Positions 6,496-64,000 of a DNA stretch of 64,000 nucleotides are shown here, piece by piece. The notes beneath the pieces are model-generated. The model made no database searches. It was not told the DNA's origin and saw only the letters and a program-made list of their open reading frames with translations. The DNA comes from Candidatus Saccharimonadota bacterium. Its GTDB lineage: Bacteria > Patescibacteriota > Saccharimonadia > Saccharimonadales > JACOTW01. The DNA is taken from contig JACOTW010000002.1 in the NCBI GenBank assembly GCA_016178135.1, positions 13,043 through 77,042 of the forward strand, read 5' to 3'. The stretch's first letter is position 1, and every line of letters begins with the position of its first letter. Both the position numbers and the translations under genes were made by a program.

Positions 6496-6668
6496 CGATT
6501 GATATATAGGACTTACGTACTTTCTCACCACACCAGACTTAACCTGTGTGGTTACAAACGGCCCATGTTCTCTCGGTGTAGCTATGGCTACCCCTCCAGA
6601 ACCTGAACCGTTTTCGCTCACCCAGCTACACTCTGGCATTGGTAAGAAAGTGCGTAAGTCCTATATAC
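6496..6668. repeat. Long hairpin element, variant with GGACTTACG termini
   Basis: TATATAGGACTTACGTACTTTCTCACC at 6496 pairs with GGTAAGAAAGTGCGTAAGTCCTATATA ending at 6667. It abuts the next type B copy. Confidence 0.6.
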
Positions 6669-6821
6669 TGAACCGATCGCAAAATCCCTCATCCCCATAA
6701 TGAATCAGCTCGAGCAAAAGCGGTTTTCTATGAAGAAGATGTATCCAGTAGAGAGGAAAAACTGTTTGTGGCCACGGTTAGTCGGTCTGGGGATGAGGGA
6801 TTTTGCGATCGGTCCAGTATA
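6666..6821 (+). repeat. Type B palindromic element, copy 1
   Basis: Runs TACTGAACCGATCGCAAAATCC...GGATTTTGCGATCGGTCCAGTAT. The internal sequence is shared with the copies at 52132, 53235 and 56671. It ends 10 nt before the orn ATG. Confidence 0.85.
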
Positions 6822-6831
6822 CTAACGGGTA

Positions 6832-7395
6832 ATGGACAAAAATCTAATTCCCAGTAAATTGCTCTGGGTTGACCTGGAAATGACCGGTCTTGATCCCACC
6901 AAGGATCTATTGCTGGAAGTAGCGGCTGAAATAACTGACTTTAATTTCAAAACTCTTGGCTCTTACGAGGCTCATATCAAGCAGCCTCGCGATAAGGTAG
7001 TGGCGCGCATGCAAGCTAATGTTTGGTGGCGTGATTATCCAGAAAACCGAGATACTTTTTTGGCTAAGTTAGACGAATCAAAATCGTTAGTAGAGGTTGA
7101 AAACGAATTAATAGGGTTAGTAAAAGAGCACTTTGGCGACGAGCCGGCAGTTTTGGCGGGTAATTCTATTCATAATGACCGAAACTTTTTAAAACATTGG
7201 ATGCCAAGTCTGGATTTGAAATTGCACTACCGAATGCTGGATGTTAGCGCCTGGAAAATATTGATGCAAGGTAAATACGGTGTGATCTTTGAAAAGAATT
7301 CTACTCATCGCGCTTTCGATGACATCCAGGCCTCCATAGCCGAGCTACAATATTATCTAGAATTCTTCGGACACGTACAGGGTATTGACAAATAG
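6832..7395 (+). CDS. orn: oligoribonuclease
   Basis: LLWVDLEMTGLDP is the DEDDh exo I motif, with the later HNDRNFL and HRAFDD motifs. 187 aa. Confidence 0.85.
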   Translation: MDKNLIPSKLLWVDLEMTGLDPTKDLLLEVAAEITDFNFKTLGSYEAHIKQPRDKVVARMQANVWWRDYPENRDTFLAKLDESKSLVEVENELIGLVKEHFGDEPAVLAGNSIHNDRNFLKHWMPSLDLKLHYRMLDVSAWKILMQGKYGVIFEKNSTHRAFDDIQASIAELQYYLEFFGHVQGIDK

Positions 7396-7420
7396 TATAT
7401 ATGTTGTAACATACTATATT

Positions 7421-7849
7421 ATGGAAGATATAGGTTCTCCTGAAAAATATAATAGAGTAGTGTTGACGCCGTATGAGACGTATATATTATGTGAAGCTTT
7501 AGAATATTCACCGAATTTTTATTTAGAATACCCAGACTACGAGTCTTATTTAGAGCAATTGCAAGAACTAGTCGAGTGCGGTAATAGTATAGATGTAAAT
7601 TTTAGTGGTGATGTGTCTGATGAGACAATAGGTTTTTTTGCATTAGCTCTAGAAAAATACCAATCAGCAGTGCAGGATTGTTACGATGAATCTATCGAAT
7701 ACCCTATTACTTTTCGAAAATGGTTACAGAGATTCGTTGAAAGGCGAACTATGACTAGAAGGTTGCCAGTTGTTAAAGGCTTGAAAGAATTGTTTATACG
7801 GGAACAAACAAAGCTTATGCTGGAAAGCATAGATCAACAAAATACCTAA
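7421..7849 (+). CDS. hypothetical protein (acidic)
   Basis: The ORF is 7385..7849. The ATG at 7421 is preferred because 7385-7390 reads TTGACA, like a -35 box. No family recognised. Confidence 0.45.
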   Translation: MEDIGSPEKYNRVVLTPYETYILCEALEYSPNFYLEYPDYESYLEQLQELVECGNSIDVNFSGDVSDETIGFFALALEKYQSAVQDCYDESIEYPITFRKWLQRFVERRTMTRRLPVVKGLKELFIREQTKLMLESIDQQNT

Positions 7850-8163
7850 TGAAGCATAAAATAGTTGAAAAATATGTGCTAAGTATGCCAAATGCTGGAC
7901 TGGATTATCCGTTTGGTGAAGGCGTAGCGGTTTATAAAGTCAAAGATAAAATGTTTGCCTTGATTGATGAAAATAAAATTCCTGTAAGAATTAGCTTAAA
8001 GTGCAATCCAGAGCTGGCAATAATCTTGCGCGATAAATACGAAACGGTACTGGCGGGCTATCATTTGAACAAAAAACACTGGAATACTATAATTTTAACA
8101 GGGCAACTGCCATGGGAAGAGGTTCAGGGGCTTATACGCCATAGTTACGACTTGGTATCATAG
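7849..8163 (+). CDS. MmcQ/YjbR family DNA-binding protein
   Basis: 104 aa. YPFGEGVAVYKVKDKMFAL...HLNKKHWNTI is typical of the YjbR fold family. Confidence 0.7.
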   Translation: MKHKIVEKYVLSMPNAGLDYPFGEGVAVYKVKDKMFALIDENKIPVRISLKCNPELAIILRDKYETVLAGYHLNKKHWNTIILTGQLPWEEVQGLIRHSYDLVS

Positions 8164-8185
8164 GATTTTCGCACTTTTGCGTTGA

Positions 8186-8788
8186 TTATAGCTGATCTGT
8201 TGCTGGCGGGAACAGAATCTTGGCTTGACTGTAGGCCTCGCTAATTGACTGTCTGGCTTTTTTGTTTGACGTTGTGTTAAGGGCTTTTTTGAGTGTCTTT
8301 TGATAATTAGCAATACCGGATTGAAGGGTTTTAAGGAATACGACATCAAATTGATTATTCTGATCAGCAGCCGTCAGTATTTTGTCGGTTTCGGCATTTT
8401 TACTAGCTGCTAGCTCTTTGGCATTAAGGCTATAGCCTTGATTTTTGATCATTTTCAGGAAAGGTTGCTGTTCGGCCATTAAGGTCATTTTGGTAGTTAT
8501 TGCCAGATTGAGTGCATCGCTACCACGAGCTTTTGTCAGGGCGATATCCGATATACGAATAAGCTCGGATTGTTGCTTGGCGGCTTTAACCAGATCATCA
8601 GTATTGCCACCACTCCCGCCAAAAATAAAAGAAAAAACAGTTATCAGTATGATGACAAGCAATATGCCACCGACGCCCACCATTAAAATACGTTGTTTTT
8701 TAGAGTTGCCAATACCTGGAAGCAGGCCTTTTTTTGGTAATTTCTGTGGGTTTGTAATGAAGTCGTATTGGTTTGGGGGCATAAGCAT
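8186..8788 (-). CDS. hypothetical single-pass membrane protein
   Basis: The start is taken at MLMPPNQYDF... (ATG complement at 8786-8788). A TM segment (ILMVGVGGILLVIILITVFSFIFGG) follows. The longer track ORF (to 9184) runs through a type B element and antisense into dnaG. Confidence 0.55.
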   Translation of the reverse strand: MLMPPNQYDFITNPQKLPKKGLLPGIGNSKKQRILMVGVGGILLVIILITVFSFIFGGSGGNTDDLVKAAKQQSELIRISDIALTKARGSDALNLAITTKMTLMAEQQPFLKMIKNQGYSLNAKELAASKNAETDKILTAADQNNQFDVVFLKTLQSGIANYQKTLKKALNTTSNKKARQSISEAYSQAKILFPPATDQL

Positions 8789-8802
8789 TATAATAAAGGT
8801 TC

Positions 8803-8915
8803 TACTGCACTTACGCAAAATCCCCTCATCCCCAGGCCGAATTCTATCGGCTACAAACTGTTTTCGCTCGAGCTGATTCGCTCTGAGAACGAGGGGTTTT
8901 GCGATAGGTCCAGTA
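8803..8915 (-). repeat. Type B palindromic element, copy 2 (short, centre deleted)
   Basis: Runs TACTGCACTTACGCAAAATCCCCTCATCCCCA...GGGGTTTTGCGATAGGTCCAGTA. Its right end supplies TATAAT 8 nt before the dnaG ATG. Confidence 0.8.
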
Positions 8916-8927
8916 TAATAGTCAAGT

Positions 8928-10694
8928 ATGGATGCTGTTGAGGAGATTAAGTCGCGTCTAAGTATTGAGGACGTTGTTGGTGAATATGTACAGTTAAAAC
9001 GGGCTGGGCGTAATTTTAAGGGCTTAAGTCCTTTTTCGAACGAAAAGACTGCTAGTTTTATGGTGAGTCCAGAAAAGCAAATCTGGCATGATTTTTCGTC
9101 TGCCAAAGGCGGAAATATGTTTAGTTTTGTGATGGAAATGGAAGGGCTAGACTTCAAGGAAACGCTGGAGTTGTTAGCCCGCAAAGCGGGTGTGGATCTA
9201 AGCCAGTATCAAAACAATCGGACGAGCAGTAATATAAAAGTAAAAGAACGTTTGTATGAAGCGTTGGAACTTGCCGCTAAATTTTATCAAATACACTTTA
9301 GTAAAAATAAAACAGCTCTTGACTATGTGCTTAAAAAACGAGCTTTTAGTAAAGACACGGCTTTATTATTCAGGCTTGGTTATGCTCCGGCGGACGGTAG
9401 TGCATTAACGGACTTTTTAAAGAAAAAAGGTTTTAGCGATAAAGAACTTCAGCAAGCTGGTCTTGCGGTTCGAGGTTATGATGCTATTCGTGATATGTTT
9501 CGAGGGCGATTGATGATTCCACTCCAAGATCCTCAAGGACGAATTATAGGTTTTACTGCTCGTATTTTGAATGATGAGCCAAACGCTCCTAAATATATCA
9601 ATACACCCCAAACGCTGCTGTATGATAAAGGACGCCACGTCTACGGTCTGCATTTGGCCAAAGAAGCTATCCGGACTCATAAATACAGTGTTGTGGTGGA
9701 GGGTAATTTGGATGTTATTGCCAGCCATCAAGCTAAAGTAACTCAAGTTGTAGCAACGGCTGGAACGGCCGTAACACAGATGCATTTAAAGGCACTTAGT
9801 CGTTTTTCTAGTGATATTAGGCTGGCATTTGACCAGGATTCGGCAGGTCAAGCCGCGGCCGAAAGGGCTATCCCTATTGCTAGTAAGGTTGGCGCGTCCT
9901 TAAGTATTATTGATATTCCATCTGGTAAGGATCCAGATGAGCTTATCAAAAAAGATCCGAAACTATGGGAGGCTGCCATTGACAAGCGACAATATGCCCT
10001 TGATTGGTTGATTGATCGTTATGTGGGTCAGCTTGATCTGAAAAGTGCCACCGGTAAACGGCAATTCAGCGACATTTTAATAGATGTCGTGAAACAACTG
10101 GATGATAGTGTCGAACAAGACCATTATTTACGGCGCATCGCAGGTACAATAGATGTTAGCATTGAGGTTATTCGTAGTAAATTCAAGCAGAACAAAACTG
10201 CTCCCAGAATGCTAAAAAGACATAAGGTAATCCCGAAAAGTGTCGATGAACGCCAGCTGGAGGCTATCAAGGCGCAGAACCAGATATTATCCATAGTATT
10301 GAAATATCCTAACCTTAGATCATATTTGGAGCGGCTTAATGCCGATATGCTGATAGAAGATGATGCCAAGAGTCTTTTTGTATTTCTACAGAAACATCCC
10401 GAATTTGCCGGAAACCCAATTACCGTCAAGCAGTTGGAGCCGATAGCTGATTATGTTAAAATGTTAATATTACAATATGAGGCATTCTATCAGGGCGTCG
10501 AGGCGGCGGAACTTTCTTACGAAACCGCTCACTTGCAGCAACGACTGATTGAATTGTATGTAAAGAGCAAAAAACTGATATTGAGCGAAGAATTACGCGA
10601 TACTAATGAAGTTCGCACCCAAACATTATTAAAAGAAGTAAAAGAACTAGATCAATTACTTAAACGCGCAGGAGACAGCCATGCCCAGCAATAA
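8928..10694 (+). CDS. dnaG: DNA primase
   Basis: The N-terminal zinc-ribbon region reads [39 protein letters not shown] core ([11 protein letters not shown]...DQDSAGQAA) is present. 588 aa. Confidence 0.9.
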
Positions 10695-22779: not shown

Positions 22780-22780
22780 G

Positions 22781-34108: not shown

Positions 34109-34988
34109 GTATCGCCTAGACAAAGAATTACTGCGTCGAGGATTAGTTGTATCTAGGTCGCAAGCTGAGGATATTATTCGCAGGGGTTTTGTAAGCGTAG
34201 CTGGTATAAGCGTTACCAAACCCGGCTTGTTGGTATCAGAAAATGTACAAATCGTCATAAAATCACGTGTTAGTTTTGTATCACGAGCGGGCGAAAAACT
34301 TCATTCAGTCTTAGATATCCTTCAACTGGATTTGTCGGACAAAGTTGTGTTGGATGTCGGTTCGTCAACTGGCGGTTTTACCGAACTGGCTTTACGCATG
34401 GGGGCAAAAAAAGTTATTGCGGTAGATGTTGGAACCAATCAAATGCATCCCAGCTTGCGTAATGATCCCCGAATTGAACTTCACGAAAAAACCGACATCC
34501 GCAATTATGTGAAAGGATCGACCACTCACATAGACGTTGTTCTGATTGATGTTAGTTTTATATCATTGCGTCAAATATTACCGTACTGCGCTACACTGAT
34601 TGATCGCAATTCGGTGATCGTGGCTATGGCAAAACCGCAGTTTGAGGCTAGACTGGACTTACCCAAAGCTCCCCCATCCCCAGACCAACTAATCTCAAGC
34701 GGTAGCGGTCTGCCTTCTATCAATGTAGCTAAGGCTACCTCTCCTTCAGTCAAACCACTATCAACTCGAGCTGATTTGCCCTGGGAACGGGCGATTTTGC
34801 GTAAGTCCAGTAGAGACATAGTTAAACACAAGGGAGTAATAAAGAACGATAAAATGCGTAGGGAGATACTAAAACACCTTGAAGATAGCATACAAAATTT
34901 GTTCATTATTATCGACAAGGCTGATTCTGGAGTTGCCGGCGCTCGCGGCAATAGGGAGCGCTTTTATTTGTTACGAAAAGCCGGGTAG
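34098..34988 (+). CDS. tlyA: TlyA-like S4-domain rRNA 2'-O-methyltransferase carrying an in-frame type B element
   Basis: The S4 domain reads RLDKELLRRGLVVSRSQAEDIIRRGFVSV. The FtsJ-like AdoMet motif is VLDVGSSTGGFTE, followed by KPQFEA. The GTG start overlaps the efp stop. About 54 codons (34652-34812) are element-derived. Confidence 0.8.
   Translation: MSNKYRLDKELLRRGLVVSRSQAEDIIRRGFVSVAGISVTKPGLLVSENVQIVIKSRVSFVSRAGEKLHSVLDILQLDLSDKVVLDVGSSTGGFTELALRMGAKKVIAVDVGTNQMHPSLRNDPRIELHEKTDIRNYVKGSTTHIDVVLIDVSFISLRQILPYCATLIDRNSVIVAMAKPQFEARLDLPKAPPSPDQLISSGSGLPSINVAKATSPSVKPLSTRADLPWERAILRKSSRDIVKHKGVIKNDKMRREILKHLEDSIQNLFIIIDKADSGVAGARGNRERFYLLRKAG
34652..34812 (-). repeat. Type B palindromic element, copy 3 (inside tlyA, in frame)
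   Basis: Runs ACTGGACTTACCCAAAGCTCCCCCATCCCCAGACC...GGGCGATTTTGCGTAAGTCCAGTA. It translates as LDLPKAPPSPDQ...WERAILRKSS without a stop. Confidence 0.9.
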
Positions 34989-38203: not shown

Positions 38204-38366
38204 TACTGGACTTACGCAAAACTCCCCCATCCCCAGACCAACTAATCCCAAGCGGTAGCGGTCTGTCTTCTCTCGATGTAGCTAAGGCTACCTCTCCTTC
38301 AGTCAAACCACTCCCAACTCGAGCTGATTTAGCCTGGGAACGGGCAATTTTGCGACAGGTCCAGTA
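38204..38366 (-). repeat. Type B palindromic element, copy 4
   Basis: Runs TACTGGACTTACGCAAAACTCCCCCATCCCCAGACC...GGGCAATTTTGCGACAGGTCCAGTA. Confidence 0.9.
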
Positions 38367-44904: not shown

Positions 44905-45071
44905 TATAGCCCCCGCAAAACAAATTCGGGGGTTTTGGAGCCGATGATCTTCGAGTCAAAAATTGGCTTTTCCGAGGGAAGCATATCATTAGATAAGGTG
45001 AGTGAGGAAAGACAGCTTTTGACCGGAGAGGGCGGTTCAAAAAGCCGTGAATTTGTTTTGCGGGGGCTATA
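44905..45071. repeat. Type A palindromic element, copy 2
   Basis: Runs TATAGCCCCCGCAAAACAAATTCGGG...CGTGAATTTGTTTTGCGGGGGCTATA and aligns along its full length with 5524-5690. Confidence 0.9.
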
Positions 45072-45085: not shown

Positions 45086-45247
45086 TACTGGACTTACGCA
45101 AAGCTCCCCCATCCCCAGACCAATTCATCTTGGCTGGTAGCGGTCTGTCTTCTCTCGATGTAGCTAAGGCTACCTCTCCTTCAGATAAAACAGTTTTCGC
45201 TCGAGATAATTCACTCTGGGAACGGACGATTTTGCATAAGTCCAGTG
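45086..45247 (-). repeat. Type B palindromic element, copy 5 (mosaic of subfamilies)
   Basis: Runs TACTGGACTTACGCAAAGCTCCCCCATCCCCAGACC...GGACGATTTTGCATAAGTCCAGTG. It lies 14 bp from the type A copy. Confidence 0.9.
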
Positions 45248-49842: not shown

Positions 49843-50040
49843 TACTGGACTTACGCAAAATCACCCGTTCCCAGGCTAAACTGGACTTACGCAAAATCGT
49901 CCGTTCCCAGAGTGAATTATTTCGAGCGAAAACTGTTTTATCTGAAGGAGAGGTAGCCTTAGCTACATCGAAAGAAGGCAGACCGCTACCAGCCGAGATG
50001 AATTGGTCTTGGGATGGGGGAGCTTTGCGTAAGTCCAGTA
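49843..50040 (+). repeat. Type B palindromic element, copy 6 (duplicated left terminus, mosaic)
   Basis: TACTGGACTTACGCAAAATCACCCGTTCCCAGGCTAAAC is followed at once by a second TGGACTTACGCAAAATCGTCCGTTCCCAG..., and the copy ends ...GAGCTTTGCGTAAGTCCAGTA. Confidence 0.9.
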
Positions 50041-52052: not shown

Positions 52053-53042
52053 ATGATTAACGGTATAATTATAGTTTTTGTTGGATTGGTTTTGGGTAGT
52101 TTTGTCAACGCGTTGGTTTGGCGGCTACATCTACTGGCCTTACGCAAAGCTCCCTCATCCCCAGACCGACTAACCTCGGCTACAAACAGTTTTTCCTCTC
52201 TCGATGTACCTTCAGGTACCTCTCCTTCGGATAAAACTGTTTTCGCTCGAGCTGATTCGCTCTGGGAACGAGGGATTTTGCGTAAATCCAGCCTACAATC
52301 CACCAAACATCCAAAAAAACCTGATAATAAAAAATATTCGATTGTTAGTGGGCGTAGCATGTGTCCAGATTGCCGACACCAGTTGGCCTGGTATGATTTG
52401 ATCCCAGTCATTAGTTGGCTAGGTCTTCGGGGGCGCTGTCGCTATTGCCATAGACCAATAAGTTGGCAGTATCCATTAGTGGAAATACTAACTGCTGTAA
52501 CTTTTATCACATCGTATGTTTATTGGCCTTACTCTTGGTCTGCTATTGGTATTACGTTATTTATTGTTTGGATCGTGTCGCTTATCAGTTTCATGGCGCT
52601 TGCCGTCTATGATTTGCGTTGGTTTATTTTGCCGGATAAAATTGTATTTCCTTTAGTCGGACTTGCGGCCATCCAGATCATCATGCGGACTGTATTATAT
52701 GGCGAAATAAGTCCTATACTAGGTGGTCTAATAGGTGTTGTTACGCTTGCTGGTTTATTTTATGCACTGTTCCAATTCTCAAAAGGACAGTGGATTGGTG
52801 GAGGAGATGTAAAGCTGGCAGTAGCTCTAGGTATGTTGGCAGGCGGAGCGGCCGAGAGCGTGTTACTGCTATTTTTAGCATCGTTAATTGGTACTTTGGT
52901 GAGTTTACCACTTCTGTTAAGTAAGAAACTAAAAAAGAATAGCCGGATTCCATTCGGCCCCTTACTTCTTATGGCTACCTTTATCGTCTATATTTTTGGG
53001 TCTGACATCATTAATTGGCTTAAGCTGTATTATTTTTATTAG
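52053..53042 (+). CDS. pilD: prepilin peptidase (A24 family) carrying an in-frame type B element
   Basis: LGSFVNALVWRL...CPDCRHQLAWYDLIPVISWL...CRYC forms a zinc-finger-like region. GGGDVKL is an active-site Asp motif. About 53 codons (52132-52291) are element-derived. Confidence 0.85.
   Translation: MINGIIIVFVGLVLGSFVNALVWRLHLLALRKAPSSPDRLTSATNSFSSLDVPSGTSPSDKTVFARADSLWERGILRKSSLQSTKHPKKPDNKKYSIVSGRSMCPDCRHQLAWYDLIPVISWLGLRGRCRYCHRPISWQYPLVEILTAVTFITSYVYWPYSWSAIGITLFIVWIVSLISFMALAVYDLRWFILPDKIVFPLVGLAAIQIIMRTVLYGEISPILGGLIGVVTLAGLFYALFQFSKGQWIGGGDVKLAVALGMLAGGAAESVLLLFLASLIGTLVSLPLLLSKKLKKNSRIPFGPLLLMATFIVYIFGSDIINWLKLYYFY
52132..52291 (-). repeat. Type B palindromic element, copy 7 (inside pilD, in frame)
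   Basis: Runs TACTGGCCTTACGCAAAGCTCCCTCATCCCCAGACC...GAGGGATTTTGCGTAAATCCAG. It translates as LLALRKAPSSPDRL...WERGILRKSS. Confidence 0.9.
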
Positions 53043-53179: not shown

Positions 53180-54289
53180 ATGGACAGTCATAAACAGCCA
53201 CAAGCATCCCATAGATCTTATAGTCAGGGCAGTTTACTCGACTCACCCAAAATCGCCCGTTCCCGGAGTGAATTATCTCGAGCGAAAACTGTTTTATCTG
53301 AAAGAGGGGTACCTGAAGGTACATCGAGAGAGGAAAAACTGTTTGTAGCCGAGGTTAGTCGATCTGGCGATGGAGGAGTTTTGGGTAAGTCGAGTATAGG
53401 CTATACGATTGTTGAAGTTATGATTTTTCTGGCTATTTCCAGTGCCATACTTGTTAGTGCTTTATTGTTGGTAGGTGGGCAACAACAAAAAACGCAGTTC
53501 ACCCAATCTTTAAGAGATATTGATTCTCATATTCGTGACGTAATGAATGACGTGTCAGCTGGTATTTATAGTAATACTGGCAATTTTCAGTGCCTGGCAG
53601 ATAATGCCGGCAGTGCTCCAGTTATATCGGCTGGTGCCGATAAACAAGGAGCAAATGTCAGCTGTATTTACATCGGTAAGGTTTTACAGTTTGGACCGGC
53701 TTCCAGTCCAGAGGATTTCAATGTGTTTAGTGTTGCCGGCCGTCAATTTCGAGGCGCGCCAATTGCCTCAAAGTTAGTTTCAGATATAACAGAGTCTAAG
53801 CCAGTGCCAATAGCGCCGAATATCGCTCATCTTGCCATGATTGGTCCAGGATTAGATGCTACAGATTACAATAAACTCGATTACGGACTTACTATAAAAG
53901 ACAATAGTGATGGGGCTCATCCGGGCTTAAGTTATGATAATGGTAGTGGCCCGCAGGCCATAGGGGCATTTGGCTTTTTTTCTAACTTTGTTACTTATCC
54001 TGACGGTAGTGCAAGTCCTGAATCAGGTCGACAGTTTACCGATATTTGGGTGATCCCTGCCAGTGCTTATGGCGATGATGCGCGAAATGTTGCCGACGAC
54101 ATCATTGATATTGGTGGTTTAAGCAGTTCAGCTGCTACCTCGTTTAAAAATCCGGCTAAAGGTATTACTTTATGTTTTTTGAGTAGCGGAACAGATCAAT
54201 ATGGCAAAATAACTATCGGTGATAATAATCAAAGACTTGCTACTACGTTGTCAGTAGGTTACAGAGGAGATGGGAGTATTTGTACATGA
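53180..54289 (+). CDS. pilin-like protein (prepilin-type N-terminal domain) with an element-derived leader
   Basis: The mature N-terminus would be G|YTIVEVMIFLAISSAILV. The 72 codons before it are mostly type B element. An alternative TTG start at 53381 is preceded by GGAGGA and would give the leader MGKSSIG. Confidence 0.7.
   Translation: MDSHKQPQASHRSYSQGSLLDSPKIARSRSELSRAKTVLSERGVPEGTSREEKLFVAEVSRSGDGGVLGKSSIGYTIVEVMIFLAISSAILVSALLLVGGQQQKTQFTQSLRDIDSHIRDVMNDVSAGIYSNTGNFQCLADNAGSAPVISAGADKQGANVSCIYIGKVLQFGPASSPEDFNVFSVAGRQFRGAPIASKLVSDITESKPVPIAPNIAHLAMIGPGLDATDYNKLDYGLTIKDNSDGAHPGLSYDNGSGPQAIGAFGFFSNFVTYPDGSASPESGRQFTDIWVIPASAYGDDARNVADDIIDIGGLSSSAATSFKNPAKGITLCFLSSGTDQYGKITIGDNNQRLATTLSVGYRGDGSICT
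53235..53396 (+). repeat. Type B palindromic element, copy 8 (in the 5' part of the pilin-like gene)
   Basis: Runs TACTCGACTCACCCAAAATCGCCCGTTCCCGGAGTG...GATGGAGGAGTTTTGGGTAAGTCGAGTA. Confidence 0.9.
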
Positions 54290-55463: not shown

Positions 55464-56666
55464 ATGAAAAAAATCATTACACTGGACTTACGCAAAATCG
55501 CCCGTTCCCAGGCTAAATCAGCTCGAGTTGGGAGTGGTTTAGCTGAAGGAGAGGTAGCCATAGCTACATCGAGAGAAGACAGACTGCTACCAGCCGAGAT
55601 GAATTGGTCTGGGAATGGGGGAGCTTTGCGTAAGTCCAGTACACTCAAAAAAAACCAGTCTGGTCTAGTTTCTATAATAGTAACCTTGATAATCATGTTG
55701 GTTATGAGCTTAATTGTTATTGGCTTTGCTAAGCTGGTACGGCGTGATCAACGCCAAACGCTTGATAAGCAACTTAATGCCCAGGCGTTTTATGCTGCCG
55801 AAGCAGGCATTAATGACGCTAGGCAAGATATTAGGGTCGCCCTTAATGCTGGAACACCAATTCCAGAGAAATCTACCTGTGCCCCAAACAGTAGTCCGCC
55901 TTTTGATAAGTCAAATATAGTTGATAGCGCACGTAACATTTCTTATACCTGTCTTCTTGTCGATCCGACGCCTGAAAGTCTGGAATACAGCAATATTGAC
56001 ACCAGCACCTCGACAGTTGTGCCGGTAACACTTAAAGATACGACCGACCACATTACGTCAATAACTGTAAGCTGGCAAGCTAAAGATGGAAATACGAATT
56101 TTGCTTGTCCGGGTAGCGGTGTTTATCCGGCTCTGCCCGCGTCTTCTCTATGGGGATGTGGTATAGGTATTATGCGACTAGATCTTGTCCCGACTGATGG
56201 ACATAAGACAAGGGCTGATTATACGAATACGACTTTCAGTAGATTCCTGTATCCTTTACCGGGGTCGCCAGGAGTTAATTCTGTTGGATATGTAGGTAGT
56301 CAAGGTGATTTTGTGCCAGTACAGTGCAGTGCTACGGCTGTACCAAAATACTGTACGTTAACCATAACGGGTTTAAGCACCACCAATTTATATATCCGTC
56401 TGAAGTCAATATATATTGCTTCAAACGCTACGATTACTTGTACGACTGCCTCGGGTGCGGCATGTGAAATGGGCGGGACGCAGATATTGGTTGATTCTAC
56501 AGGGAAAGCCAATGACGTTTTACGTCGTATACAGGTGAGGGTTCCTGATGTAATATCAGGTATATTGCCGGAAGGAGCGCTTGATACCAGTAGCAATATC
56601 TGTAAACGTTACGTTATTGTTAATAACTCTTCTTTGAGCGATCCTGATTCATGCGGTACCAATTAA
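55464..56666 (+). CDS. PilX-like pilus-associated protein with a type B element in frame after codon 6
   Basis: MKKIIT + [LDLRK...LRKSS] + TLKKNQSGLVSIIVTLIIMLVMSLIVIGF. A basic leader followed by QSG and a hydrophobic helix is the PilX-type pseudopilin pattern. Confidence 0.65.
   Translation: MKKIITLDLRKIARSQAKSARVGSGLAEGEVAIATSREDRLLPAEMNWSGNGGALRKSSTLKKNQSGLVSIIVTLIIMLVMSLIVIGFAKLVRRDQRQTLDKQLNAQAFYAAEAGINDARQDIRVALNAGTPIPEKSTCAPNSSPPFDKSNIVDSARNISYTCLLVDPTPESLEYSNIDTSTSTVVPVTLKDTTDHITSITVSWQAKDGNTNFACPGSGVYPALPASSLWGCGIGIMRLDLVPTDGHKTRADYTNTTFSRFLYPLPGSPGVNSVGYVGSQGDFVPVQCSATAVPKYCTLTITGLSTTNLYIRLKSIYIASNATITCTTASGAACEMGGTQILVDSTGKANDVLRRIQVRVPDVISGILPEGALDTSSNICKRYVIVNNSSLSDPDSCGTN
55481..55641 (+). 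repeat. Type B palindromic element, copy 9 (in the PilX-like gene, in frame)
   Basis: Runs ACTGGACTTACGCAAAATCGCCCGTTCCCAGGCTAAATCAGCTCGAG...GGGGGAGCTTTGCGTAAGTCCAGTA. Confidence 0.9.
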
Positions 56667-56670
56667 TCTT

Positions 56671-56831
56671 TACTGGACTTACGCAAAATCCCTTGTTCCC
56701 AGGGTGAATCAGCTCGAGCGAAAACAGTTTTGTCTGAAGGAGAGGTACCCAGGAGGTACATCGAGAGAAGAAAAACTGTTTGTAGCCGAGGTTAGTCGGT
56801 CTGGGAACGAGGGATTTTGCGTAAGTCCAGT
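56671..56831 (+). repeat. Type B palindromic element, copy 10
   Basis: Runs TACTGGACTTACGCAAAATCCCTTGTTCCCAGGGTGAATCAGCTCGAGCG...GAGGGATTTTGCGTAAGTCCAGT. Confidence 0.9.
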
Positions 56832-56854
56832 TTAGGAATTAGTTTATAAGACTT

Positions 56855-59038
56855 CTAGGACTTACGTGAATGAAATTTCTCATGTATAGCTTTTAAGTGT
56901 GGATCGGTAACATGAGTGTATATTTGGGTTGTAGATATATTACTATGACCAAGCATTGCCTGAACTGACCTCAAATCTGCACCGTTCATTAATAAATCTG
57001 TTGCAAATGAATTATGTGAGACGAAGCCATCTGCAATTAAATTTTCGGTTTCTTCTACTGTGAAGTCGTATACAGTTATATCTGTTTTGATTCTATCGGT
57101 CTTATGAACTTTGAGCCATTTTATCTGGTTATTACTACTCGCTAGTCTACGGAGTAGGTTCATTCTGGGGTCTAATATACCAGCACGTTTGAATCGCACA
57201 TAAAAACGCATTGCTGTTTCTTTGGTCGGGAGGACTTGGCCGCTTAAGTATCTAGAGTGGTCCTTTAGTGTTCTTTGATCTTTACGGCGAGTATACAGAC
57301 TTTTACCGGATTCTTTGACTAGTTTGTTTAGGTTAACTAGCATTTCAGTAATTGGTAGTTTTTCACCTACAAAATCCGGACTGATGTTTATCTTTTTGAG
57401 CGTAGGAATTTTGGTGACAAATTTTTGCTGATCTGGCTGGTATAGTATCTGAAGATTGTAGATTGTGAAGGGTTGTTTGACCGTATCTGCAGATTTATGG
57501 GGTAAACGAACCATACGGTTACGTGTATAGAAATGGGCATCAATTCCAAGTCTAAGTAATAACATCTGGATGTCTTTTATAAATTCTTTGTTGGCGCTGA
57601 AGAATTTGGCGTCGCCCTCGTTGCCGTCTGCGTCGTAGAGACCGGCCAAGAAATGGGCAACGGCACTTTCTGATGACCTGAATAATTTGTCTGGTACACG
57701 TAGGCCATGGGTTGTGGTTGCGAGCCCTAGTTTCTTTAGTAGTTTTACAAGAGGCATATGGTAGCAAGTGACATTAAAACTGTTGGAATTAGATGCTGGC
57801 TTGATTTCGACTTTTTTGTTGAATAATTTTTCTATTAAGTCAACGTAGAGGCTCAAGAAAACTTTGTTTTTGTCGTGTAGTATTACGCCGTGCCGACGTT
57901 CGCTGACAGTTCCGTCACCACATATGTAGCCAATAAGTCGCCACATGTCGTTCGACAAATACTGTTTGCTTTGTTGGGATATTTTCTTGACCCCCATAAC
58001 GTAATCACCAGATTTTAGGTCACTTGCTTGGATTTGAGCAAATCCGTCTTTGTCTAGAGTAAATAAACGGTGTTCTGGGGTACACACAAGCTCGTAACCA
58101 CCGGCAGTTAGCTGAATCATTTCTGTAGATTTGTGGGTGCTTGAATGACTAATGGCTTGCGATGTCTGTGTACCTTTATTGAGATGGAGCGACTTTACGC
58201 TGTGTTTGGTTGAATTATAAAGATATTCTGCACTTACTATTCTACGGGGAAGGCTGATTCTAGTATTTGGGTGTAGACAATGGCGGAGCGTGTGGGGGGA
58301 TACGTGTTTGGTGATGCCAGCAAGGACTGCGTAGCGGGCGACTAATCTTTGTACGCTGCGGGCGGTAAGGCGGTAATAATTGCCGCTGACAGTTGATTTT
58401 TTGCTGCCGCTGTATCTGATAAATAGGGGTAGGGAATTGTCTTGGCGTTTGTCCATATATTGTGTAATCCACCAAGCCGATGTATCGCTAATGAATATTG
58501 GGCGGTCTTTTTGGCCTTTGCCCCGAACCATAAACTCGCGTCGTTTGAGATTGATATGATCCTTGTCTAGCCCTACAAGCTCCGAGACGCGCAGTCCCGA
58601 AGAAAATAATAGTTCTAAAATAGCCCGATCTCTTAGTCCTGGTAAGTTATCAATATTTGGTTGAGAAAATAATCGTTCAAGTTCCTCGGGTGCTAAAAAG
58701 GTAACTTGTTTTCTGACAGTTCGAGCCAGTTCAATCTTGTCAGCAGAGATAGCTGGGATATTGCGTTTGGCGCAATACTTCAAGAAGCCTCTTAGCGCTA
58801 TGAGGTGATAATTCTGGGTATTTTTTTGTAATTCATCACTTGTATTTGTGCCCAGTCGATTCAGCCACAATCTCCATTTCCGTATCATTTCCGTATCAAT
58901 ACCAGATATTTTAATATCACCGGTGAAATCTATTAAGCGCGTTAGGTAGTGGTCATAGTTACGGATAGTTTTTTGTGATCTATTTTGTTCGATTTCTAGG
59001 TATTCCAGGAAATCAGTTTTGGCTTTAGAAAATAACAT
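56855..59038 (-). CDS. XerC/XerD-family tyrosine recombinase interrupted by an intein
   Basis: The exteins total 304 aa. The N-terminal SAM-like domain reads [33 protein letters not shown]-type box I ([19 protein letters not shown]) and HVSPHTLRH are present. After the 423-aa insert come [34 protein letters not shown], which include the catalytic Tyr. Confidence 0.88.
57011..58279 (-). mobile_element. Class 1 intein with a LAGLIDADG homing endonuclease (423 aa) inside the recombinase
   Basis: It begins with Cys (CLHPNTRI, block A). Block B is TPEH, and the LAGLIDADG motifs are [11 protein letters not shown] and [11 protein letters not shown]. Blocks F/G are [21 protein letters not shown], followed by the +1 Ser. 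Codon checks: TGT at 58279-58277, AAT at 57013-57011, TCA at 57010-57008. Confidence 0.88.
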
Positions 59039-59122: not shown

Positions 59123-59235
59123 TACTGGACCTGTCGCAAAATCGTCCGTTCCCAGGACGAATCAGCCCGAACGGAAACTGTTTGTAGTCGAGATTATTTA
59201 GTCCGGGATACAGGAGAGCTTTGCGTGAGTCCAGC
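59123..59235 (+). repeat. Type B palindromic element, copy 11 (short)
   Basis: Runs TACTGGACCTGTCGCAAAATCGTCCGTTCCCAGG...GAGAGCTTTGCGTGAGTCCAGCA. It lies in the divergent xer/ndk intergenic region. Confidence 0.8.
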
Positions 59236-59272
59236 ATAGATACATCAAAATTAACAATAAATAAGGACATCA

Positions 59273-59814: not shown

Positions 59815-59889
59815 GTCCCCGTAGTTCAATGGATAGAATAACTCCGTCCTAAGGAGCAGATCTGCGTTCGAGTCGCGGCGGGGATACCA
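59815..59889 (+). tRNA. tRNA-Arg (anticodon CCT)
   Basis: A manual cloverleaf fits: acceptor GTCCCCG/CGGGGAT, anticodon loop GTCCTAA, T-loop TTCGAGT, and an encoded CCA. 75 nt. Confidence 0.8.
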
Positions 59890-59926
59890 AATATTAAGTG
59901 CAATTAGTGTAAAATAGTTAATCAGG

Positions 59927-61645: not shown

Positions 61646-61650
61646 TCACG

Positions 61651-61705
61651 CATTTCGCCCTTTGTCGTTGCCCCAGCTCACACCTGAACGACTACAAACT
61701 TCTAC
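61651..61705 (+). repeat. Family C repeat (partial), 3' of the PPIase stop
   Basis: CATTTCGCCCTTTGTCGTTGCCCCAGCTCACACCTGAACGACTACAAACT is followed by the 13-nt palindrome TACTGGACCAGTA. Confidence 0.65.
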
Positions 61706-61724
61706 TGGACCAGTAGTTCAGTAT

Positions 61725-61886
61725 AAACTCGACTTACGCAAAATCGTCCATTCTCAGACCAACTAACCTCGGCTGATAGCGGTCTGCCTTCTTTCGATGC
61801 AGCTAAGGCTACCTCTCCTTCAGTCAAACCACTATAAACTCGAGCTGATTTGCCCTGGGAACGGGCGATTTTGCATAAGTCCAGTG
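61725..61886 (-). repeat. Type B palindromic element, copy 12
   Basis: Runs AAACTCGACTTACGCAAAATCGTCCATTCTCAGACC...GGGCGATTTTGCATAAGTCCAGTG. Confidence 0.9.
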
Positions 61887-61959: not shown

Positions 61960-61990
61960 AAAACACCCCAGACCAGCTGGGGCATTTTCA
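61960..61990. terminator. Bidirectional-looking terminator hairpin
   Basis: CCCCAG-ACCAG-CTGGGG is flanked by an A-run upstream and CATTTTC downstream. It lies just 3' of the minus-strand ORF that ends at 62027. Confidence 0.55.
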
Positions 61991-62026
61991 TTGGCGGGGC
62001 CATAACCTTTGGGGTGTGGAACTATT

Positions 62027-62440
62027 TTATTGAGTCGGAGGAAGTGTTTCAGGATTTTTAGCCTTTGCTGCCAGCTCTGCCGCTTCGTTGACCACAGCTC
62101 CCGCCAATCTTGTATATCCTGTTTCAAATCTCTGATCAAGAGGCAGTAAACCCGCGTTTCGTACAGCAGTTAGCCCAAGCTCATAGTGTTCTTTATATTT
62201 ATTAGGGTCGCCTGGTAAGAGGTTTCCATCTGCATCATATTCGTGAGGTAGGGTCTCGGTTACCTTAAATGCGGCGCGAACACCACGAAAGTCCATTGAA
62301 TCAGTGTCAAGCCCACTGGGAGCAATATGCCGGTTGTGGTGGGGCTTACGCCATCTACGCGCACCATCTTCAAAAAACCTTCGAGCATCGTTAGGGTTAA
62401 TCACGTCAGGCATTTTCTGTTCTGATTCTGGGGAACTCAT
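62027..62440 (-). CDS. hypothetical protein
   Basis: The start is taken at MSSPESEQKMPDV (ATG complement at 62438-62440). No family recognised. The ORF is visibly more GC-rich than its neighbours. Confidence 0.4.
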   Translation of the reverse strand: MSSPESEQKMPDVINPNDARRFFEDGARRWRKPHHNRHIAPSGLDTDSMDFRGVRAAFKVTETLPHEYDADGNLLPGDPNKYKEHYELGLTAVRNAGLLPLDQRFETGYTRLAGAVVNEAAELAAKAKNPETLPPTQ

Positions 62441-62610
62441 ACAATCATTTTGACATAGATAGCATAGTTTGTCAATGCTCAGGGGGGTGGGCTCGACCGG
62501 TTTCGCCTTGATCGTAGCACAAAGTGCGCTGCTTAGTCGACTCCAACTTCCTTTGGTCGTTCTAAGGCAAGCTGTGGGGTACGCCACTGGCATATCCATT
62601 CGATTATACC

Positions 62611-62643: not shown

Positions 62644-62650
62644 CTTTCTA

Positions 62651-62904: not shown

Positions 62905-63008
62905 ATAAGTAGCGTTAGTTATAACCAGATGATATTATCAAGAACAGAGGTAAAACGCAACATATATGTATGATTATCTGGTATAATTTGTCGGAATGAA
63001 CAGGTTTT

Positions 63009-63085
63009 GCCACCTTAGCTCAGTTGGCTAGAGCACCACTTTCGTAAAGTGGGGGTCCGGGGTTCGAATCCCCGAGGTGGCTCCA
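63009..63085 (+). tRNA. tRNA-Thr (anticodon CGT)
   Basis: GCCACCTTAGCTCAGTTGGCTAGAGCACCACTTTCGTAAAGTGGGGGTCCGGGGTTCGAATCCCCGAGGTGGCTCCA has anticodon loop TTCGTAA and acceptor GCCACCT/AGGTGGC. Confidence 0.88.
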
Positions 63086-63117
63086 TTTTTGGCGTGAAGC
63101 TATGCAGGGCAGGGCAG

Positions 63118-63192
63118 GCGGGTGTCGTATAACGGCTAATATGTAACCTTCCCAAGGTTGAGACGAGGGTTCGACTCCCTCCACCCGCACCA
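63118..63192 (+). tRNA. tRNA-Gly (anticodon CCC)
   Basis: GCGGGTGTCGTATAACGGCTAATATGTAACCTTCCCAAGGTTGAGACGAGGGTTCGACTCCCTCCACCCGCACCA has anticodon loop TTCCCAA and acceptor GCGGGTG/CACCCGC. Confidence 0.85.
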
Positions 63193-63237
63193 TTGTGATC
63201 CCAGGATCCCAGGGGGTGCCCCTGGAATGAAATTTTG

Positions 63238-63262
63238 GTCATTTTGTTTTGCGGGGACTATA
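63238..63262. repeat. Solo right terminus shared by the type A and family C elements
   Basis: GGTCATTTTGTTTTGCGGGGACTATATA matches the right ends at 5668-5690 and 53112-53139. Confidence 0.6.
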
Positions 63263-63342
63263 TATGGCCACCTCCCTTTCAGAGAAAACTGTTTTCATTC
63301 TGAAGTAACCAAAAGCCTCCGGCAAAGTGCTAAATTCATGTA

Positions 63343-63506
63343 TACTGGACCTGTCGCAAAATCGCCCGTTCCCAGGCTAAATCAGCTCGAGTTGGGAGTG
63401 GTTTGGCTGAAGGAGAGGTAGCCGTAGCTACATCGAGAGAAGACAGACCGCTACCAGCCGAGATGAATTGGTCTGGGGATGGGGGAGCTTTGCGACAGGT
63501 CCAGTA
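63343..63506 (+). repeat. Type B palindromic element, copy 13
   Basis: Runs TACTGGACCTGTCGCAAAATCGCCCGTTCCCAGGCTAAATCAGCTCGAG...GGGGGAGCTTTGCGACAGGTCCAGTA. Confidence 0.9.
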
Positions 63507-63522
63507 TAATTGGAGTGATCTT

Positions 63523-63879
63523 ATGCCTATTGCTAAAAACTATTTTCACGATCGTCTAGTATTACTATTGCTTAGTGTCAATATATTCCTAACGCTTCTA
63601 GGTGCACTTTTGATTGTTCTTAGATTTAGTGGTAATAATAGTGAAAGCCACATTGTACAATATCGCTCCCACCTTGGACTTGATGCATTTACAAAGGGTG
63701 GATCTGCTCCAATTTTTAGTTTTATATTGTTTTCTGTCTTGATCATGGTATTTCATACTGTGCTTGGCATGCGGATTTATCATCTAAGACGGCAGTTTTC
63801 TGTTACCGTGCTTGGAACTGGCACGCTTTTGTTGATTATCGCAATCATAGTTAGTAATGCTCTCTTGGTATATCGTTAA
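63523..63879 (+). CDS. hypothetical polytopic membrane protein
   Basis: The ATG at 63523 follows a GGAG sequence just after the element. Three predicted TM helices are present. The track ORF start at 63403 lies inside the element. Confidence 0.5.
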   Translation: MPIAKNYFHDRLVLLLLSVNIFLTLLGALLIVLRFSGNNSESHIVQYRSHLGLDAFTKGGSAPIFSFILFSVLIMVFHTVLGMRIYHLRRQFSVTVLGTGTLLLIIAIIVSNALLVYR

Positions 63880-63892
63880 TCATGCCTAATCG

Positions 63893-64000
63893 ATTGGACT
63901 TACGCAAAATCGTCCGTTCCCAGGCTAAATCAGCTCGAGTTGGGAGTGGTTTGGCTACATCGAGAGAAGACAGACCGCTACCAGCCGAGATTAGTTGGTC
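63893..64000 (+). repeat. Type B palindromic element, copy 14 (centre deleted, truncated by the window edge)
   Basis: Runs ATTGGACTTACGCAAAATCGTCCGTTCCCAGGCTAAATCAGCTCGAGTTGGGAGTGGTTTGGCTACATCGAGAGAAGACAGACCGC... Confidence 0.85.

Follow-up and report, generated by a model that had tools for sequence, protein, structure and literature searches.

Palindromic repeats with IS701-type ends and reading frames open on both strands lie in frame within genes of Saccharibacteria

Results

Genes and palindromic repeats of the window

The DNA analyzed here is a stretch of 64,000 nucleotides from a Candidatus Saccharimonadota bacterium (assembly GCA_016178135.1, contig JACOTW010000002.1, positions 13,043 to 77,042 of the forward strand), referred to as the window and numbered from its first base. 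Its sizeable open reading frames (ORFs) are housekeeping genes, those of a type I restriction-modification/Shedu island and of a type IV pilus cluster, and the gene of a XerC/D-like recombinase that contains an intein. Between and within these genes lie copies of a palindromic repeat of about 160 bp, here called family 1, together with members of two related families (Table 1). We argue below that family 1 very probably consists of non-autonomous transposable elements of the miniature inverted-repeat kind (MITEs) that have terminal inverted repeats (TIRs) of the IS701 family of insertion sequences (ISs) and that land in frame in genes.

Copies of family 1 were searched for with a scan for the 18-nt terminus and with a profile derived from eight of them. 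With up to three mismatches allowed, the terminus was found at 22 places in the window, as compared with 0.07 occurrences expected from shuffled sequences, and 16 copies or fragments were found in total, ten of them full-length. The 14 starts given in a preliminary description of this DNA were all recovered by the profile search, each being real to within 1-2 nt; the one at 49843, however, does not mark a separate full copy but a 37-bp fragment that adjoins the full copy at 49879. An additional collapsed copy at 2217-2251, inside a gene, had not been listed. The hairpin tip has been lost from the copies at 6666, 8803, 59123, and 63892, and no copies are present between 10 and 34 kb.

Table 1. 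Palindromic elements of the window and their genomic context (TSD, target-site duplication; MFE, minimum free energy in kcal/mol)
Element	Position	Strand	Features and context
Collapsed family-1 copy	2213..2255	-	35-bp core 2217-2251, two termini only; flanks TTTA/TTTA; in CDP-alcohol phosphatidyltransferase gene 2024-2701 (-)
Family-2 element	5526..5688	-	163 bp; tip TAG[C/T]CCCCGCAAAAC; MFE -78.5; C-terminal tail (YSPRKTNS...EFVLRGL*) of VanY-type carboxypeptidase gene 5523-6461 (-)
Family-3 element	6507..6663	.	157 bp; canonical IS701 tip TAGGACTTACG(C/T)AC (TAGGACTTACGCAC); intergenic; directly adjoins family-1 copy 6666
Family-1 B-type	6666..6819	+	150-bp core, hairpin tip deleted; TSD TATA/TATA; intergenic, VanY (-) on one side and RNase T-like gene (+) on the other
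Short family-1 copy	8803..8915	.	109-bp core, internal deletion; intergenic, ends 12 nt upstream of dnaG (8928-10694)
Family-1 A-type	34651..34812	-	full-length; 158-bp core 34653-34810; TSD TAGA/TAGA; in TlyA
Family-1 A-type	38204..38366	-	full-length; 159-bp core, 1-nt indel breaks frame; intergenic, ychF (-) / ORF 38415 (+)
Family-2 element	44907..45069	.	163 bp; MFE -84.6; aa ~18-72 of ORF44854
Family-1 mosaic (B arm + A loop/arm)	45086..45247	-	full-length; 158-bp core; TSD TGTA/TGTA
Family-1 5' fragment	49843..49880	+	37 bp; adjoins next copy
Family-1 mosaic	49879..50040	+	full-length; 158-bp core; most of ORF49836
Family-1 B-type	52132..52293	-	full-length; 158-bp core; in frame in PilD
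Family-1 B-type	53235..53396	+	full-length; 158-bp core; pilin-like leader of ORF 53180-54289
Family-1 A-type	55480..55641	+	full-length; 158-bp core; TSD TACA/TACA; leader of ORF 55464-56666
Family-1 B-type	56671..56832	+	full-length; 158-bp core; TSD TTTA/TTTA; intergenic, convergent genes; internal +1/-1 indels give stops in both coding frames
Short family-1 copy	59123..59236	.	110-bp core; intergenic, integrase (-) / ndk (+)
Family-1 A-type	61726..61886	-	full-length; 157-bp core; intergenic
Family-1 A-type	63343..63506	+	full-length; 160-bp core; TSD TATA/TATA; after tRNA-Gly; most stable hairpin, -106 kcal/mol
Family-1 copy, hairpin tip deleted	63892..64000	+	cut off by window edge

Core, target-site duplication, and reading frames

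The family-1 core is 158 bp long, is near-palindromic over its whole length, and ends in the TIRs CTGGACTTACGCAAA and TTTGCGTAAGTCCAG. It is flanked by a 4-bp target-site duplication (TSD) of the form T-N-N-A, overlooked in the preliminary description, which brings the inserted length to 162 bp, that is, exactly 54 codons, and is the source of the divisibility by three. When the flanking 4-mers of 13 copies were compared, 43 of 52 positions matched, as against 14.1 for random pairs taken at equal spacing (maximum 26 in 5000 trials), and only 11 of 52 matched among the next four nucleotides outside. Exact TSDs were found in six of these 13 copies. Four of them (TAGA, TGTA, TACA, and TTTA) are non-palindromic and therefore are not an extension of the inverted repeat. 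A duplication of 2 bp (TA) or 3 bp is ruled out, as exact direct repeats occur at k=4 only and these four tetramers are non-palindromic. The first T of the TSD occupies host codon position 3, NNA forms the next codon, and the core opens a codon. In the collapsed copy, the 35-bp core and its 4-bp duplication add up to 39 bp, or 13 codons, read in the host frame as K-LDSRKIALGESS-K.

No transposase ORF is carried by the core, the sole open frames of which encode a 54-aa module. All six 162-bp copies embedded in ORFs can be read without a stop on either strand in the frame opened by core base 1, and stops are present in their other four frames; the claim that either orientation is translatable as LDLRK...LRKSS thus holds for each of them. 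The long hairpins reported earlier were likewise recovered, since every copy folds end to end (MFE -39 to -106 kcal/mol, as compared with -25 to -51 kcal/mol for shuffled sequences). The internal subfamilies can be defined as A, with a GGTAGCC tip, and B, with a GGTACC tip, and the copies at 45086 and 49879 are real mosaics of the two.

Insertions within conserved proteins

Four in-frame copies in the genes of TlyA, PilD, and two pilin-like proteins, and two more in small ORFs coupled to the flanking pil genes, had been described and are all confirmed. In TlyA (34098-34988, +), the module forms a loop after the KPQFEA motif, and the match to the FtsJ domain ends at profile position 127 of 181, which is the exact start of the element. 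In PilD (52053-53042, +), the module occupies residues 27-80, just after the first transmembrane segment, and the 84 positions of the A24_N_bact domain, in which it lies, are spread over 147 residues around it.

When the module was deleted in silico from six proteins and their Pfam domains were rescored, a contiguous and higher-scoring domain resulted in all six. The FtsJ match of TlyA was extended from profile positions 1-127 to 1-179 of 181 (99 to 111 bits), and A24_N_bact of PilD contracted from 147 to 93 residues (103 to 107.5 bits). In the GDP-mannose dehydratase Gmd (P0012) and in KsgA (P0011), two matching stretches merged into one, with scores rising from 136 to 147 and from 166 to 177 bits, respectively. 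The match was extended from positions 12-73 to 12-124 in a NUDIX protein (P0009; 54 to 62.5 bits) and from 26-151 to 2-151 in an RluA protein (P0004; 100 to 106 bits).

Orthologs with empty sites, the comparison proposed in the preliminary description, were found as a reciprocal pair. The TlyA protein of another Saccharibacterium (P0021, 60% identical) is without the insertion of the window gene and contains a module of its own about 50 residues upstream, in the opposite orientation, where the window gene is empty. Almost all of the 120 closest TlyA homologs are 238-254 residues long, and the loop between KPQFEA and KHKGVIKN has 4-5 residues in 57 of 60 aligned homologs, as compared with an additional 54 residues in the window protein. 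The excision results, the reciprocal empty sites, and the loop lengths all bear out the earlier claim that the module is an insertion and not native protein.

In an AlphaFold2 model of TlyA, built with aligned homologs as input, the predicted local distance difference test (pLDDT) means of 10-residue blocks are 87-98 outside the module, most pLDDT values of the host fold exceeding 90, and the predicted template modeling score (pTM) is 0.76; the module itself (residues 186-240) has a pLDDT of 43-63 and is mostly coil. The target-normalised template modeling scores against solved TlyA structures are 0.81 for 3opn and 0.76 for 7s0s_B. In the model, therefore, the TlyA fold appears to be kept, and the module is predicted to be a low-confidence loop. 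The peptides predicted at the module-host junctions are PQFEARLDLPK and ILRKSSRDIVK in TlyA (...KPQFEARLDLPK, ...AILRKSSRDIVK) and WRLHLLALRK in PilD.

The same KPQFEA|KHKGVIKN loop contains a different insert of about 25 residues, VYAERSRS...SSGFRDVR, in the TlyA homologs P0046 and P0057 of other Saccharibacteria. It is encoded by a shorter hairpin, GCTGAGCGGAGTCGAAG...CTTCGAC..GCTCAG (L185:3001-3801), and is apparently another in-frame palindromic element at the same permissive site.

Pilin leaders and element-made ORFs

Both pilin copies, at 53235 and 55480, are situated in leader peptides, shortly ahead of the points of prepilin cleavage, G|YTIVE and G|LVS, respectively. As judged from these motifs, they would belong to the cleaved leaders and not to the mature proteins, a point missed in the preliminary description. 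The copy at 53235..53396 ends two residues before G|YTIVE, its 3' end providing GGAGGAG-TT-TTG in frame. After excision, the leader of the PilX_N-containing ORF 55464-56666 becomes MKKIITLKKNQSG|LVS, a normal type IV leader; its TSD TACA falls in the I-T codons. A third independent insertion into a pilin leader was found in another species (L179:742-960), in the opposite orientation.

The 3' end of a forward element contains a Shine-Dalgarno-like GGAGGAG or GGGGGAG followed by an in-frame TTG, and this combination lies just upstream of the two pilin cleavage sites. Initiation at the element-borne TTG would yield short, typical pilin leaders (MGKSSIG| and MRKSSTLKKNQSG|), and the element may now supply the start codons of these two genes.

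Two small ORFs of the pilus cluster are made by the elements, which had also been overlooked. ORF44854 (44854-45276), in the pilM-pilN gap, is nearly all element, with the family-2 element 44907-45069 and the family-1 copy 45086 read end to end, and it overlaps the pilM stop and the pilN-like start. ORF49836 (49836-50093), between the genes of a PilT-like ATPase and PilC, consists of one fragment and one full copy. Both ORFs keep an overlapping stop/start arrangement with the neighboring pil genes.

Spread beyond the window and conservation of open frames

Among 5.8 billion proteins searched with four module peptides, 36 were matched; they represent about 30 kinds, and those with a named source are all from Saccharibacteria. 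The hosts include two RluA proteins, an ROK kinase, MiaA, the DNA polymerase III delta' subunit (HolB), NUDIX, KsgA, Gmd, two TlyA proteins, RNase HII, TsaE, Fmt, UppS, a sortase, PheT, LepB, CyoD, and a VirB2-like pilin. Many of the insertions are deep inside the host protein, and one RluA contains two tandem modules. A profile search of 1.84 billion cluster representatives gave 85 matches, 49 of them at E<=1e-10, and most are 'proteins' of 45-130 residues, that is, gene calls on intergenic copies.

At the DNA level, 596 Gb of genomes were scanned with the 15-mer terminus, for which about 1,000 chance matches are expected; genomes with several or paired matches were used. Among the matches listed, full-length homologs occur only in Patescibacteria, namely in several metagenome-assembled genomes (MAGs) of Saccharibacteria/Saccharimonadales and in a CPR2 genome (LBVV01) of the candidate phyla radiation (CPR). 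From these searches the family is real and appears phylogenetically narrow. It is not a local duplication, the alternative envisaged in the preliminary description, as other parts of the sister genome and further CPR genomes also contain it.

A metagenome scan for two perfect 15-nt termini 115-140 nt apart yielded 32 elements with core lengths of 158 (15 copies), 161 (11), 160 (5), and 162 bp (1). The core length plus four is divisible by three in 26 of them, one third being expected, and these fall into two size classes, 158+4 and 161+4. Frame 0 is stop-free on both strands in 24 of the 26. An exact 4-bp TSD, always TNNA, flanks 21 of the 32 copies, and eight copies are inside ORFs of 294-708 residues. 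The interior of the 161-bp class, which comes from CPR2 and one Saccharimonas lineage, is quite different, and both of its frames are likewise open. Stop codons in the shared frame of copies beyond the window, which were to count against translatability, are thus not the rule: CPR2 and Saccharimonas copies, and most metagenome copies, are open on both strands.

Within the window, the length is a multiple of three in all seven ORF-embedded copies versus two of seven intergenic ones (Fisher p=0.02). Both this length and two open frames are seen in six of seven ORF-embedded copies versus none of seven intergenic copies (p=0.005), or in seven of seven when the mini copy is taken at its corrected coordinates. 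These counts suggest that element lineages have been shaped for translatability, and that host selection would maintain the frame only in copies residing in ORFs. The annotated ORF 63403-63879 (HY003_00620) starts inside the 63343 copy.

Strain comparison and turnover

Contig JACPYE010000003.1 of the MAG GCA_016196105.1 (Candidatus Saccharibacteria) matches the window at 100% identity. A sister MAG, GCA_040960765.1, is 99% identical over 20 kb and has the same copies at the same loci; since two independent MAGs agree in this, the repeats are not an assembly artefact. The divergence between the strains is 3.5% inside elements versus 0.77% outside, i.e. about 4.5 times faster, with 39 of 181 differences falling in elements that make up 5.7% of the sequence (p=6e-13). 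The window and two sister-genome regions have about one copy every 4-5 kb, an upper-end estimate, the regions having been chosen for their elements.

At the pilM-pilN locus, the differences form a single patch, in which the sister strain has a B-type arm and the window an A-type arm. Over the 21 differing columns, the sister allele agrees with B copies at 12-13 and the window allele with A copies at 14-16, and both alleles keep the 162-bp length and the open frame. Recombination among copies, suggested earlier from the mosaics, is thus seen as a switch of arm subfamily between 99%-identical strains, and this switch, as read from the alignment, is direct evidence for the gene conversion that would produce the mosaics.

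The copy at 61726 is absent from the sister strain GCA_040960765.1. Eight nucleotides upstream of it, at 61705-61717, is the mini-palindrome TACTGGACCAGTA, equal to the two outermost element tips fused and possibly a footprint or a copy collapsed to the extreme; the sister sequence differs in this region. About 0.5 kb at ~61960-62485 is also absent from the sister strain, including most of ORF 62027-62599 (-), which encodes 190 residues without a Pfam or NCBIfam match and adjoins the polymorphic 61726 copy and tRNA-Asp. A 10-bp indel, ATTAAGTGCA, distinguishes the strains at 59893-59902, just downstream of tRNA-Arg (59815-59889).

IS701-type ends and the search for a transposase

An IS with ends matching the termini, a check proposed in the preliminary description, was found outside CPR, in the IS701 family (ISPlag1, ISAba11, and their relatives). 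ISPlag1 of Planktothrix is a 1,306-bp IS of the IS701 group with TIRs CAGGACTTACGCAAG... (PMC2464740), and in a survey of the IS4 family the target duplications of IS701 are 'exactly four bps' (PMC2266710). The CPR element tip, nnGGACTTACGCA, is identical to ISPlag1 at 12 of the 13 outermost nucleotides and partially matches the published IS701 consensus ---YACT-Y--YR (PMC2266710); beyond the tip, its interior is unrelated to ISPlag1. A complete ISPlag1 is present on a Planktothrix plasmid (L188:10029-11334), where the gene is labeled 'IS701-like element ISPlag1 family transposase' in RefSeq and the transposase scores 408 bits on NCBIfam NF049921. Planktothrix also carries ISPlag1 remnants of 197 and 812 bp.

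Homologous plasmid ISs of other taxa have the same end architecture as the CPR element, with two variable bases followed by GGACTTACGCA, a tip shared by the two ends of each of the Nodularia, A. baumannii, and ISAba11 elements, which end in TAGGACTTACGCA. By identity to the ISPlag1 transposase, they are the Nodularia IS (65%; end TAGGACTTACGCAAC, no clear TSD), the A. baumannii IS (47%; end TAGGACTTACGCAT, 4-bp TSD AGGT), and ISAba11 (30%; the same end, 5-bp TSD CATAT), along with a Piscirickettsia IS (35%; end CACGACTTTCGCAC with the diverged tip CACGACTTTCGCA, 5-bp TSD GAGGT). Because tips, end architecture, and the 4-bp TSD are shared, the CPR element is best classed as an IS701-type MITE and would be mechanistically ordinary, which had escaped the preliminary description.

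The 15-nt tip also caps unrelated short palindromic elements of 66-167 bp with 4-6-bp TSDs in several phyla. Among the matches listed, elements sharing it (nnGGACTTACGCAAA) occur in Extensimonas/Comamonadaceae (83 bp, many copies), in Thermoflexales and other Chloroflexota, in Cyclobacteriaceae, and in many cyanobacteria (for instance L055:1833-1915, L075:5734-5801, L049:1041-1129, and L040:3188-3322, from loci L006-L113). Their similarity stops directly after the tip, the pattern expected for a shared transposase-binding end, and together they look like a cross-phylum set of IS701-tipped MITEs.

In agreement with the preliminary description, there is no transposase among the sizeable ORFs of the window. 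Around P0025 and P0001 in the sister genome, no DDE transposase was found, only a large serine recombinase, an enzyme type that makes no TSDs. Pairs of termini 1.5-2.8 kb apart were rejected as autonomous elements, being chance pairs at three mismatches; in L016, L043, L059, and L108 the genes enclosed are housekeeping ones (for a Mur ligase, a porin, thymidylate synthase, and others), and in L117 and L149 they are phage genes. Of 67 ORFs collected inside unpaired termini, the ten best placed look ordinary by eye, no family search having been run. A terminus scan of viral contigs gave 40 loci with no full element homolog and no IS, a six-frame scan of all loci for the ISPlag1 signature 'RW.IE..H' gave nothing, and an ISPlag1-like end from Trichodesmium had no BLAST match in plasmids.

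Related families and other features

Families 2 and 3 resemble family 1 in being palindromic. A further family-2 site is located at ~63260, and single tips occur near 8161 and 29410. Members of family 2 have one stop-free frame per strand, are apparently not multiples of three in length, and are found only at gene ends.

Several features of the locus are recorded here in their own right. The XerC/D-type tyrosine recombinase gene at 56855-59038 (-) encodes 727 residues with Phage_integrase and a SAM-like N-domain; the intein that interrupts it contains a homing-endonuclease domain of the LAGLIDADG type. A type I restriction-modification operon at 21268-28254 (+) comprises hsdM (21268-22779), hsdS (23823-25088), and hsdR (25081-28254); hsdM and hsdS are separated by an inserted Shedu (SduA) defence gene (22781-23839). 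In the sister genome, a distance of about 6 kb separates the large serine recombinase (L183:16329-17507) from a cluster for type IV secretion in which five pilin genes of the secretion system stand in tandem. One of these (P0025) contains the module, and this region may be an integrative element.

Discussion

Proposed life cycle of the elements

In the mechanism we propose, an IS701-type DDE transposase acting in trans would recognize the tips of about 15 nt (nnGGACTTACGCA...) and insert the 158-bp palindromic core at T-N-N-A, duplicating 4 bp. With a stop-free frame from core base 1 in a near-palindrome, the same host phase would be permissive in either orientation, and insertion in that phase (one in three) would add 54 hydrophilic, probably disordered residues without a frameshift or truncation. 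Insertions would survive where they are tolerated: in surface loops (TlyA, KsgA, RluA, Gmd, NUDIX), in the cytoplasmic loop of PilD, in cleaved pilin leaders, at gene ends, and in intercistronic gaps. In a gene-dense genome of about 1 Mb, lineages with open frames and a length divisible by three would have far more safe landing sites, and since such a genome has little intergenic space, the successful lineages would be of this kind. After insertion, copies would drift fast, lose their tips by deletion, and exchange arms by gene conversion, those in ORFs being held by selection on the host gene. We suppose that the elements are neutral for the host rather than beneficial, and that the modules are translated, as the conservation of their frame suggests.

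A number of observations weigh against this mechanism. The ISPlag1 copies examined show no clear 4-bp TSD, and tblastn with the ISPlag1 transposase had no match in the window or any fetched locus. Likewise, 41 kb of the sister genome and the fetched CPR loci, a fraction of the genome, yielded no transposase of the IS701 type; it is the ends of the elements that point to the identity of the mobilising transposase, to its presence in CPR, and to mobilization in trans. In the sister strain, the 61726 site is occupied by 35 bp of unrelated sequence and is not cleanly empty. Finally, the hairpins contain 79 G.U wobble pairs on one strand versus 27 on the other, a threefold asymmetry that a purely DNA-level selfish element does not predict and that makes an RNA-level constraint possible.

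Alternative explanations

This asymmetry is one of the arguments for a host-useful RNA or regulatory hairpin (an RNase III site, stabiliser, attenuator, translational coupler, or donor of a Shine-Dalgarno sequence and start) as the driver of the spread and maintenance of the elements, in place of selfish transposition, an explanation we consider unlikely. One strand is always much more stable as RNA, by 15-30 kcal/mol (e.g. -95.5 vs -68.1), but the asymmetry is inherited from common ancestors, so that the copies are not independent evidence. The Shine-Dalgarno-like motif with its in-frame TTG upstream of two pilin cleavage sites, joined by the third leader insertion in L179, would also suit such a role, as would the stop/start coupling kept by ORF44854 and ORF49836 between pil genes; however, the third pilin case has the opposite orientation, and copies point either way relative to genes and are found in contexts of all kinds. 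Moreover, elements evolve 4.5 times faster than their flanks, intergenic copies decay by indels, and in an Rfam search of the window only four tRNAs reached the gathering score, the elements matching no family. Spread by transposition is shown by the TSDs and IS701 tips. We find it quite improbable that in-gene copies remain outside working proteins, their hosts being pseudogenes or the module being bypassed in translation or removed from the mRNA. A perfect stem of about 75 bp in an mRNA would strongly impede translation and would probably be cut by RNase III, and several N-terminal 'insertions' may be start-codon miscalls. Yet ORF-embedded copies, unlike intergenic ones, keep open frames and a length divisible by three, neither of which bypass or excision would need, and the gene-conversion allele at pilM-pilN keeps its frame as well. 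The hosts include single-copy essential genes of a minimal genome (HolB, PheT, LepB, UppS, Fmt, and KsgA), the flanking domain halves are intact and high-scoring, and the host domain folds normally in the AlphaFold2 model.

Spread as repetitive extragenic palindromes (REPs) or their REPIN-type doublets by a REP-associated tyrosine transposase (RAYT, IS200/IS605-like), or by another non-DDE mechanism, is hardly credible. The likeness, palindromic doublet-like hairpins in many copies with no transposase nearby, is superficial: the 4-bp TSD is clear and is not made by REPINs, many copies lie inside genes, DDE elements of the IS701 family have identical tips, and the window contains no RAYT-like gene. 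As for the shared 54-residue segments being native protein sequence or a repeated motif, or else an assembly artefact, NCBI does annotate proteins with the segment included (e.g. 'TlyA family RNA methyltransferase'), but the same DNA is found between genes, in both orientations, with TIRs and TSDs; homologs exist without it, and its excision raises domain scores. An artefact is contradicted both by the two independent MAGs and by the occurrence of the family in many independent metagenomes. We give this explanation practically no chance, and it is already refuted by these results.

Significance

Beyond the interpretation of family 1 as IS701-type MITEs, a broader scheme can be put forward tentatively, as possible rather than probable. 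IS701-tipped MITEs of CPR would have been 'domesticated for harmlessness', acquiring bidirectional frames and a length divisible by three via lineage selection in genomes that are extremely gene-dense. They would be translated in essential proteins (rRNA methyltransferases, pseudouridine synthases, the polymerase III delta' subunit, PilD) and would belong to a hitherto unrecognised pan-bacterial superfamily sharing nnGGACTTACGCA in Comamonadaceae, Cyanobacteria, Chloroflexota, Bacteroidota, and CPR. If this is true, the modules would contribute significantly to the lineage-specific loops, new leader peptides, and start sites of Saccharibacteria.

Translatability in both orientations would also account for the survival of selfish elements in CPR genomes of about 1 Mb that are more than 90% coding. 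For annotation, dozens of 'hypothetical proteins' of 45-130 residues (e.g. P0156-P0233) are gene calls on intergenic copies, some N-termini are element-derived (ORF 63403, possibly some pilin starts), and the lengths and alignments of CPR housekeeping proteins are inflated by the 54-residue modules. As hotspots of fast divergence and gene conversion, the elements are useful strain markers and an assembly hazard.

Comparison with known systems

Abundant hairpin-forming repeats of about 100-160 bp are also known from other small or medium genomes. The Correia elements of Neisseria have TIRs and a short TA-containing duplication. These elements and REPINs are, however, confined essentially to intergenic DNA and work at the level of RNA or promoters, and REPINs lack a TSD and depend on RAYT. 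Supply et al. are said to have described, in 1997, the mycobacterial interspersed repetitive units (MIRUs) as intercistronic repeats whose small ORFs overlap the flanking stop and start codons. ORF44854 in the pilM/pilN gap and ORF49836 in the pilT/pilC gap are similar in arrangement, whereas MIRUs are tandem and minisatellite-like, not palindromic with TIRs and TSDs.

Other small, TIR-bearing, non-autonomous elements contribute ORF segments to host proteins by in-frame fusion, namely QMITE1 of Coxiella, MITEb/e of Anabaena, and intragenic enterobacterial repetitive intergenic consensus (ERIC) sequences (PMC10969869, PMC5896051). Fusion is occasional in those systems but frequent here, with at least 30 kinds of host protein, and here the length and frames look shaped for it. 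With the ISs of the IS701 family (ISPlag1, ISAba11, and relatives), the CPR elements share the outermost ~13 nt, the position of the boundary, and TSDs of 4 (or 5) bp; they differ in having no transposase gene, a length of 158 bp as compared with 1.1-1.5 kb, and an unrelated interior that is a long open-frame hairpin.

The closest likeness is to the palindromic elements of Rickettsia (RPEs, RPE-1 to RPE-10; Ogata et al. 2000/2002, after the summary in PMC10969869), which a 2024 MITE review names as the outstanding case without mention of CPR (PMC10969869). No description of such elements in CPR or Saccharibacteria was found in the literature searched (open-access papers and bioRxiv), and the present family of IS701-type MITEs, RPE-like by analogy, appears to be new for CPR in that literature. 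Both systems consist of palindromic repeats of about 100-150 bp that have entered numerous unrelated housekeeping genes of a reduced genome in frame and add a conserved peptide thought to be fold-compatible, and in both several related families coexist (three in the window). Their bearers are Patescibacteria/CPR in one case and Alphaproteobacteria in the other, and the likeness is functional, the RPEs having been compared by description. The CPR family would thus be a second clear, well-documented case, outside Rickettsia, of palindromic mobile elements situated routinely in frame in housekeeping genes. Peculiar to it are the defined TIRs, the 4-bp TNNA TSD, an identifiable parent IS family (IS701), and the statistically supported combination of a bidirectional stop-free frame with a core and TSD that together are a multiple of three. 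Unlike in the RPEs, this explicit transposition signature of IS701 tips and a 4-bp TNNA duplication makes the mechanism experimentally testable.

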